Virus record (IMG/VR): IMGVR_UViG_2648501498_000007
DNA: 13,363 bases
Origin: a virus
Taxonomy: Duplodnaviria > Heunggongvirae > Uroviricota > Caudoviricetes
Direction: 5' to 3' (one strand)
Below, one piece after another: positions 12,001 through 13,363 of this stretch; the stretch's first letter is position 1; each line of letters begins with the position of its first letter. Made by a program: the position numbers.

Positions 12001-13363
12001 TGCAGTACTATCCAGGGAAACATCCGTGCGAAAAACCGGCAGAAATGCTGCAGCAGATAATCAACGCGAGCAGTCGTCCGGGAGACCTGGTTGCAGATTT
12101 TTTTATGGGTTCAGGTTCAACGGTAAAAGCGGCGATGGCACTGGGGCGTTGTGCGATTGGTGTTGAGCTGGAGACAGGACGTTTTGAACAGACAGTCAGG
12201 GAAGTTCAGGATTTAATCGTTTGAAACGGATGGGATTGCAGAATTAATTACGCACCATTATTATTCTGCTACCGGCCCTTTAGCTCAGTGGTGAGAGCGA
12301 GCGACTCATAATCGCCAGGTCGCTGGTTCAAATCCAGCAAGGGCCACCATCACATACCGCCATTAGCTCATCGGCAGAGAGCGTCAGCTTTCGAAACTGG
12401 CTGTGTGGGGCCCGGGTCCCCGATGGCAATCCATTATCTGCATTATGCGTTGTTAGCTCAGCCGGACAGAGCAATTGCCTTCTAAGCAATCGGTCACTGG
12501 TTCGAATCCAGTACAACGCGCCATATTCATTCTTCCAGATTTCTTCCGGCAGAGCCTTATACTGGAATATACCTGGCTCAGTATATTGTTGAAAATATTA
12601 TATGTTTGTCAAAAATAAAAGTTCTGTTAAGTATTGATTGAGTGTTTGTTATACGGTCTAATGGTTTTTTCAGTATTAAATATTTATCATTCATATGGTG
12701 TGGGTAGAGTGAATATTGATGAGGCGTCGGGGTGTTTCATCCTTAGGCAGCGTATTGATATAGTCAATGCAGCACGAGCAAAGGCCTTCAGCCGTTTGAC
12801 AGTTTTGTTCTGTACTCCTGATCGTCTTTTGGGAAGAGACGTTATTATTCTGAATAGTGATGCTATACAGAGGGTTTGCGATGAGTTCATGGTTGCTAAT
12901 TCAGAATTATTTGCTCTTGTTCAGGAGTACAACAGAATAGCCAGGACCTGTGGTATGGATGAACTTCGGATTACTCATCTGGGGTAGATACATATCTGGA
13001 TTATCACCTGTTACGGTAAAAAGTGATTGCTTACTGTTTTTGTGAATGGCATTGCAGCAGCCGGATAATGTCAGTGCTGGCTGACGGTGTGCTGGTGGCG
13101 GGTGTGGTGGTTGTTGCTTTCCCGTTGCTGAAAAAGAAAACGCCAGACTGTTAGCCGGGTATCAGTTAGCGGGAGAAATTTTTAAATACTTCACAATTCA
13201 GGCGGTTGACTGTTGTCTGGTTTGCGGGGAGTTTGTTAAAAGAAACTGGCATGGTGAATCCCCCTGTGCGGCTGTCTCTTGATCAGATCTCCTGATCAAG
13301 AGACTTCATCACCAGGTAACCCTCAACCATATCCTGAAGTCTGAACCAGCCATCCCACATGAC

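Follow-up and report, generated by a model that had tools for sequence, protein, structure and literature searches.

The 77-nucleotide element at positions 12,357–12,433 of IMG/VR record IMGVR_UViG_2648501498_000007, a 13,363-nucleotide stretch of DNA hereafter called the window, is very probably a pseudogene of argN, the tRNA-Arg(UCG) gene of Stx phages, drifting under relaxed selection in the middle slot of a three-slot tRNA array. This reading draws on homology, synteny, the loss of conserved features, the failure of three tRNA detectors and a continuing, uncompensated decay within its clade. A sequence-only reading had left three explanations standing, namely a functional non-canonical phage tRNA, a decaying pseudo-tRNA and a tRNA-like regulatory element; our analysis favours the second, and the lost conserved bases, the uncompensated changes and the invariant neighbours speak against the other two.

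The element (CCGCCATTAGCTCATCGGCAGAGAGCGTCAGCTTTCGAAACTGGCTGTGTGGGGCCCGGGTCCCCGATGGCAATCCA) has the tRNA-like traits listed in the sequence-only reading, which are its length, a D arm (stem GCTC/GAGC), a T stem of five pairs (UGGGG/CCCCG, that is U49.G65 and four G-C pairs), an encoded CCA at 12,431–12,433 and the anticodon UCG, which lies in a seven-nucleotide loop (UUUCGAA) with U33. D stem, anticodon loop and CCA are those of a canonical tRNA. The defects described there are likewise real: the fold and the Rfam alignment both place C1.A72 and C2.A71 in the acceptor stem and C31.A39 in the anticodon stem, leaving neither the seven pairs of the former nor the five of the latter complete, and the T loop reads CCCGGGT, with C54 C55 C56 G57 G58 in place of T54-Psi55-C56-R57-A58. 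Two further features had escaped mention, a G19-to-C change in the D loop, by which the G19-C56 tertiary pair is lost, and a U27.G43 wobble pair. The minimum-free-energy fold, which pairs across and collapses the T loop, equals shuffled sequence in stability (z = +0.10). The elbow formed by the T and D loops serves as a recognition site for RNase P, EF-Tu and the ribosome, and losing the T54-A58 and G19-C56 contacts as well as the 1-72 and 2-71 pairs should impair it; a C1.A72 mismatch is also the feature that keeps initiator tRNA off EF-Tu.

tRNA-finding software places the ends of the element consistently and does not accept it as a gene. At default settings ARAGORN, like an Rfam scan at gathering level, calls the two outer tRNAs only; relaxed to 95% (-ps95), it finds the element with boundaries and anticodon unchanged. 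The Rfam tRNA model (RF00005) aligns to the same boundaries with the same three non-pairs and scores 22.2 bits (E = 0.027 in 401 nucleotides), below the gathering score of 29, compared with 55–56 bits for intact argN and 70–72 bits for the neighbouring tRNAs; sister alleles of the same type reach 26.4 bits, 23.5 bits, or are undetected. The Prokaryotic Genome Annotation Pipeline (PGAP), within which tRNAscan-SE is used, leaves the matching stretch without a feature in all 60 of the RefSeq E. coli genomes that were listed. A canonical fold at other boundaries, raised in the sequence-only reading as the counter-case, appeared in neither the ARAGORN nor the Rfam runs: stepping ARAGORN from default to 70% gave the same 77-nucleotide call, the Rfam ends were identical, and no other register or strand of the element yields a canonical tRNA fold. 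Extra reverse-strand calls by ARAGORN concerned other alleles only, and only at very low thresholds.

Non-tRNA identities were also tried and rejected. At E <= 10, Rfam gave noise only (YrlA, SNORD103 and an antisense Plastid-ycf2 match on ileZ), and as a terminator or attenuator the GGGGCCCGGGTCCCC hairpin lacks a T tract, with the terminator scan empty there. The match to the Rfam "Plastid-ycf2 5'UTR" model (12,274–12,347, minus strand, 36 bits against a gathering score of 65.7) recurs in every related locus and reflects a systematic tendency of that model to give false positives on tRNA antisense. A reverse-strand open reading frame of 62 amino acids (12,328–12,516) merely overlaps the tRNA genes.

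Comparison with argN of Stx phages, suggested in the sequence-only reading, showed the element to be the positional and sequence ortholog of this tRNA-Arg(UCG) gene. The array ileZ-argN-argO is also that of phage 933W. In Stx2a_F723 (AP012533.1), whose depositors name the three genes ileZ, argN and argO, stx2A starts 90 bases after them. The element resembles the Stx2a_F723 argN in its slot between ileZ (CAU) and argO (UCU), its 77 nucleotides, its anticodon TCG and its unusual CCGCCAT 5' acceptor strand, and the two agree at 64 of 77 bases, with both spacers identical. They differ by 13 substitutions (G19C, T20aG, C27T, C32T, G39A, C47T, C49T, T54C, T55C, A58G, T63C, G71A and G72A), which in the element abolish G19, T54, T55, A58 and the pairs 1-72, 2-71 and 31-39, all invariant across 21 violation-free alleles. 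Eight of the 13 fall at positions invariant in all 21 of these alleles and five at positions variable among intact alleles. Divergence from Stx2a_F723 amounts to 13/77 in the middle gene as against 0/76 in ileZ and 1/77 in argO (at position 37; Fisher p = 3e-6 versus both neighbours). The element is 83–88% identical to about 1,450 annotated E. coli tRNA-Arg genes and to 238 phage records (E ~1e-20 to 1e-32).

For the population analysis, arrays were sampled from IMG/VR, metagenomes and GTDB genomes with the ileZ or argO sequence alone as bait, and alleles of the window's type (W) were then retrieved by a 16-nucleotide W-specific word; rate comparisons were restricted to the array, as the prophages are mosaic 3' of argO. 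The W clade comprises 42 loci with eight haplotypes, the commonest of which is the exact window allele (14 of 42 loci, the window itself among them), which differs from the inferred W ancestor by C27T and T55C. All nine segregating sites of the clade lie in the middle element (G18A, C25T, C27T, A29T, G43A, G51A, G52A, T55C and C75T), and ileZ, argO and the spacers are free of them across the 42 loci (p = 8e-6 versus the two tRNAs). Purifying selection on structure would leave compensatory changes only, and none of the nine is compensatory; several make new mismatches or remove G18, T55 or the CCA end. The intact alleles serve as a positive control: among them, compensatory changes occur at 4-69, 7-66, 27-43, 30-40 and 51-63, and variation is otherwise confined to tolerant loop positions. 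The covariation at these five pairs identifies the family as a real tRNA under structural selection, from which the W branch has escaped. Spacer 2, which does not vary within the W clade, is highly variable between other allele groups (pi 0.17).

W alleles are present in 87 of 5,426 complete E. coli genomes, among them E2348/69, H10407, O26:H11 strains and H19, and the exact window allele in 39. This recurrence of an identical sequence, in 39 complete genomes assembled independently of one another and in 14 of the 42 loci of the W clade, together with argN homology and synteny, refutes a tRNA-like fold by chance or an artefact of assembly, an explanation to which we assign next to no probability even if the Rfam match, taken alone, is weak enough to invite it.

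A functional tRNA-Arg(UCG) of non-canonical type, working despite its aberrant T loop and frayed acceptor end, is very unlikely. Such a tRNA would account for the overall cloverleaf, the correct length, U33, the anticodon, A20, C35 and G36, the encoded CCA, the ARAGORN call at the 95% threshold and the wide distribution of the allele type over 87 complete genomes; it would have to do without T54, T55, A58, G19 and three stem pairs, score below the Rfam gathering threshold, and be left unannotated in every RefSeq genome listed. Its sister alleles are further damaged without compensation (G18A, C75T in the CCA, new stem mismatches), and none of the 50,697 deposited phage genomes carries a W allele (best identity 88%). 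C1.A72 and the loss of the elbow also argue against function.

Several observations nevertheless weigh against a pseudogene. The element keeps a cloverleaf-like shape, U33, the encoded CCA and A20, C35 and G36, the last three of which are E. coli ArgRS (arginyl-tRNA synthetase) identity elements, and judged by these bases it may be weakly charged. ARAGORN at default settings still calls the inferred W ancestor and two further W alleles, and the sharing of one exact allele by so many genomes and loci could reflect recent spread rather than constraint and is no proof of neutrality. Ancestral and within-clade changes together fall at 20 sites of the 77-nucleotide body and at 0 of 20 spacer bases (p = 0.005 if independent), a contrast that pure neutral decay does not predict and that suggests either constraint on the spacers or joint arrival of some ancestral changes by recombination. 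T54C, A58G and T63C are common to other alleles such as L078 and may thus have come together by recombination, which weakens this p value. Finally, among the sampled arrays with both ileZ and argO, none is without a middle element.

This last observation, with a shortest ileZ-argO interval of 80 nucleotides, is also what would be expected if a tRNA-shaped module that no longer decodes were being retained, either as an RNase P/RNase E maturation spacer in a tricistronic precursor or as a decoy for tRNA nucleases. We consider this very unlikely. It would explain why the W clade shows change in the body and none in spacers 1 and 2, and why remnants of two other degenerate types (D and C, described below) keep a perfect 7-bp acceptor helix and CCA. 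The changes within the W clade, however, break helices at random and without covariation, and in W the acceptor end used by RNase P is itself mismatched. No Rfam family beyond tRNA matches, and the fold has no stability beyond that of shuffled sequence. The apparent compensation in the C-type acceptor was inherited from an intact ancestral allele type, and as the degenerate arrays trace to only some four lineages, the missing clean deletions are weak evidence. The spacers, or the tRNA-shaped block as such, have a small chance of being important to how ileZ and argO mature; were the module retained, lambdoid prophages would repeatedly lose the decoding function of argN and never its place.

Under the pseudogene reading, the middle gene would have come under relaxed selection in the prophage lineage of the window, with its neighbours held under strong purifying selection. 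Point mutations would then have accumulated, removing the elbow bases G19, T54, T55 and A58 and opening the acceptor end and the base of the anticodon stem. The DNA of the element is probably still co-transcribed with its neighbours, as would follow if the array has its own promoter; its RNA would be unstable, and processing, charging and useful translation appear unlikely. For CGA and CGG the host already has decoders of its own, tRNA-Arg(ICG) and tRNA-Arg(CCG), which makes relaxed selection on argN plausible. AUA and AGA/AGG rely on scarce host tRNAs, which ileZ and argO supplement.

Decay of the middle slot is recurrent. Of 222 arrays sampled via ileZ alone, 59 (27%) have a middle slot that ARAGORN does not call, and 25 (11%) an uncalled third slot. 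At least three more degenerate forms of independent origin (D, C and E types) are known from the samples, which like W lie between identical ileZ and argO genes and derive from the same tRNA scaffold. In the D type, found in many prophages and in phage mEp460_ev081, the D/anticodon region has been rewritten and there is a poly-G tract of varying length; the C type is a 66-nucleotide remnant with an 11-nucleotide deletion of the anticodon arm; the E type carries A6.A67, A52.C62 and G58 and still scores 43 bits. D and C types are called by neither ARAGORN nor Rfam. W has decayed by point substitutions only and is still of full length. In the loci sampled, downstream stx genes accompany intact-type arrays only (8/70 versus 0/109 degenerate; p = 4e-4, for loci that are not phylogenetically independent).

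Among the degenerate forms sampled, the D type is the commonest and keeps a perfect 7-bp acceptor helix and CCA (L003, 3,123–3,202; L035, L151, L207 and L241). Its poly-G run ranges from 5 to about 12 G between loci, differences that could stem from slippage or sequencing error, and two loci (L080 and L113) carry recombinants between D-type and intact alleles. Selection on an acceptor/T-arm minihelix was rejected as an explanation of the C type, whose 66-nucleotide remnant inherited CCGCCAC/GTGGCGG from an intact CCGCCAC-type allele. Four further loci (L053, L079, L121 and L258) contain argN/argO fusion genes right after ileZ, in which the 5' half of argN runs into the 3' half of argO, with the junction at GCCTTCT. 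The acceptor strands of these chimeras no longer match, a pattern as if inter-gene recombination had deleted the interval.

The scaffold has also changed its anticodon. Another array (L037, L041, L082 and about 30 more loci) consists of ileZ, an argN-scaffold homolog with anticodon TTT and a tRNA-Thr(TGT); the homolog has C33 replacing the near-universal U33 and a 51-63 mismatch, and scores 44 bits. TCT alleles of the scaffold occur as well, some of them with Thr in the third slot (L191), others uncalled (L209), and L062 is TCT on an argN-type body. Together the TTT and TCT alleles indicate that the anticodon was switched several times on one tRNA backbone.

Literature searches on argN/ileZ/argO, tRNA pseudogenes and prophages turned up no description of the W allele. 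A 2026 paper reports "tRNA-pseudo-tRNA-Arg" variants of the array in stx2i strains (PMC13641118). These variants from STEC, E. coli strains that make Shiga toxin, resemble the window in having an Ile-Arg-Arg array with two annotated tRNA genes and one pseudo-tRNA; the prophages there are stx2i-positive whereas the window is without stx, and the likeness is one of description.

The finding is very probably one of ordinary gene decay in an E. coli prophage, and its use lies mainly in annotation: a 77-nucleotide stretch left blank in RefSeq, E2348/69 and H10407 among the reference strains concerned, can carry the label of an argN pseudogene and need not be mistaken for a novel RNA. Within the array, the decoders of AUA and of AGA/AGG are near-perfectly conserved, and the decoder of CGA/CGG shows several independent decays, which together affect about a quarter of the arrays sampled. 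This uneven decay and the presence of stx, in this sample, downstream of intact-type arrays only bear on the debate about why temperate phages carry tRNAs, and reveal no new mechanism.

The window corresponds to the part of an E. coli lambdoid prophage in which early-to-late regulation is encoded and is 99.8% identical across 13.3 kb to the potC-adjacent prophage of E. coli O111:H2 strain 12A, in which the gene order is ydfC, a LexA-family repressor, cro, replication genes, hokD/sok, DUF968, rusA, DUF1133, a DNA methyltransferase and the tRNAs. The array lies directly 3' of the methyltransferase gene (Table 1).

Table 1. Features of the tRNA array and its 5' flank in the window.
Feature	Position	Strand	Basis and remarks
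DNA methyltransferase gene	11175-12224	+	open reading frame list; annotation in the near-identical CFSAN018748 and O111:H2 12A prophages; immediately 5' of the array
Candidate sigma-70 promoter, TTGCAG-17 nt-TATTAT	12236-12264	+	read from the sequence; ends 9 nt before ileZ +1
ileZ-type tRNA, anticodon CAU, intact	12274-12349	+	ARAGORN; Rfam tRNA, 72.5 bits
Spacer 1 (TCACATA), ileZ to probable pseudogene	12350-12356	+	alignment
Probable decayed argN ortholog, tRNA-Arg(UCG), W allele type	12357-12433	+	fold, homology, synteny
Spacer 2 (TTATCTGCATTAT), probable pseudogene to argO	12434-12446	+	alignment
argO-type tRNA-Arg, anticodon UCU, intact	12447-12523	+	ARAGORN; Rfam, 70.1 bits; PGAP tRNA-Arg

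The first tRNA of the array is assigned to Met by ARAGORN and to Ile by PGAP and the depositors of AP012533. Judged by its hexamers, the candidate site upstream of it probably gives the array a promoter of its own: TTGCAG and TATTAT recur 5' of ileZ in related loci, with the bases between them varying. A consensus promoter scan did not report the site, whose -35 hexamer matches at 3/6 positions only. A "pS tRNA promoter" is named among the features compared over the q-to-stx2B fragment of O157:H7 (PMC2858043).

The E. coli CFSAN018748 prophage, which carries the identical element, is visibly defective, with IS2 and ISCro1 insertions and with portal, DUF968 and DUF977 genes that are pseudogenes (L002, 6,058–7,287 and 21,959–27,870), a background of decay that fits the W allele. 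The ileZ-argN-argO array, found here otherwise in Escherichia genomes and Stx phages, was also present in two metagenome-assembled genomes, labelled "uncultured Collinsella sp." (L036, UQIB01000015.1) and "Proteobacteria bacterium" (L032, JAFAFL010000075.1); its occurrence in the Collinsella bin looks like binning contamination. Matches to STnc100 and AsxR/AgvB-type small RNAs lie a few hundred bases 3' of the array in related loci (L001, 4,730–4,989; L004, L044, L050 and L003), and none reaches the gathering score in the window, which stops 840 nucleotides past argO. Further upstream, the window contains a hok/sok type I toxin-antitoxin module (7,857–8,181), with an Rfam sok match of 106.7 bits at 7,857–8,028 (+) and an open reading frame of 51 amino acids at 8,026–8,181 that corresponds to the hokD annotation in matching genomes.
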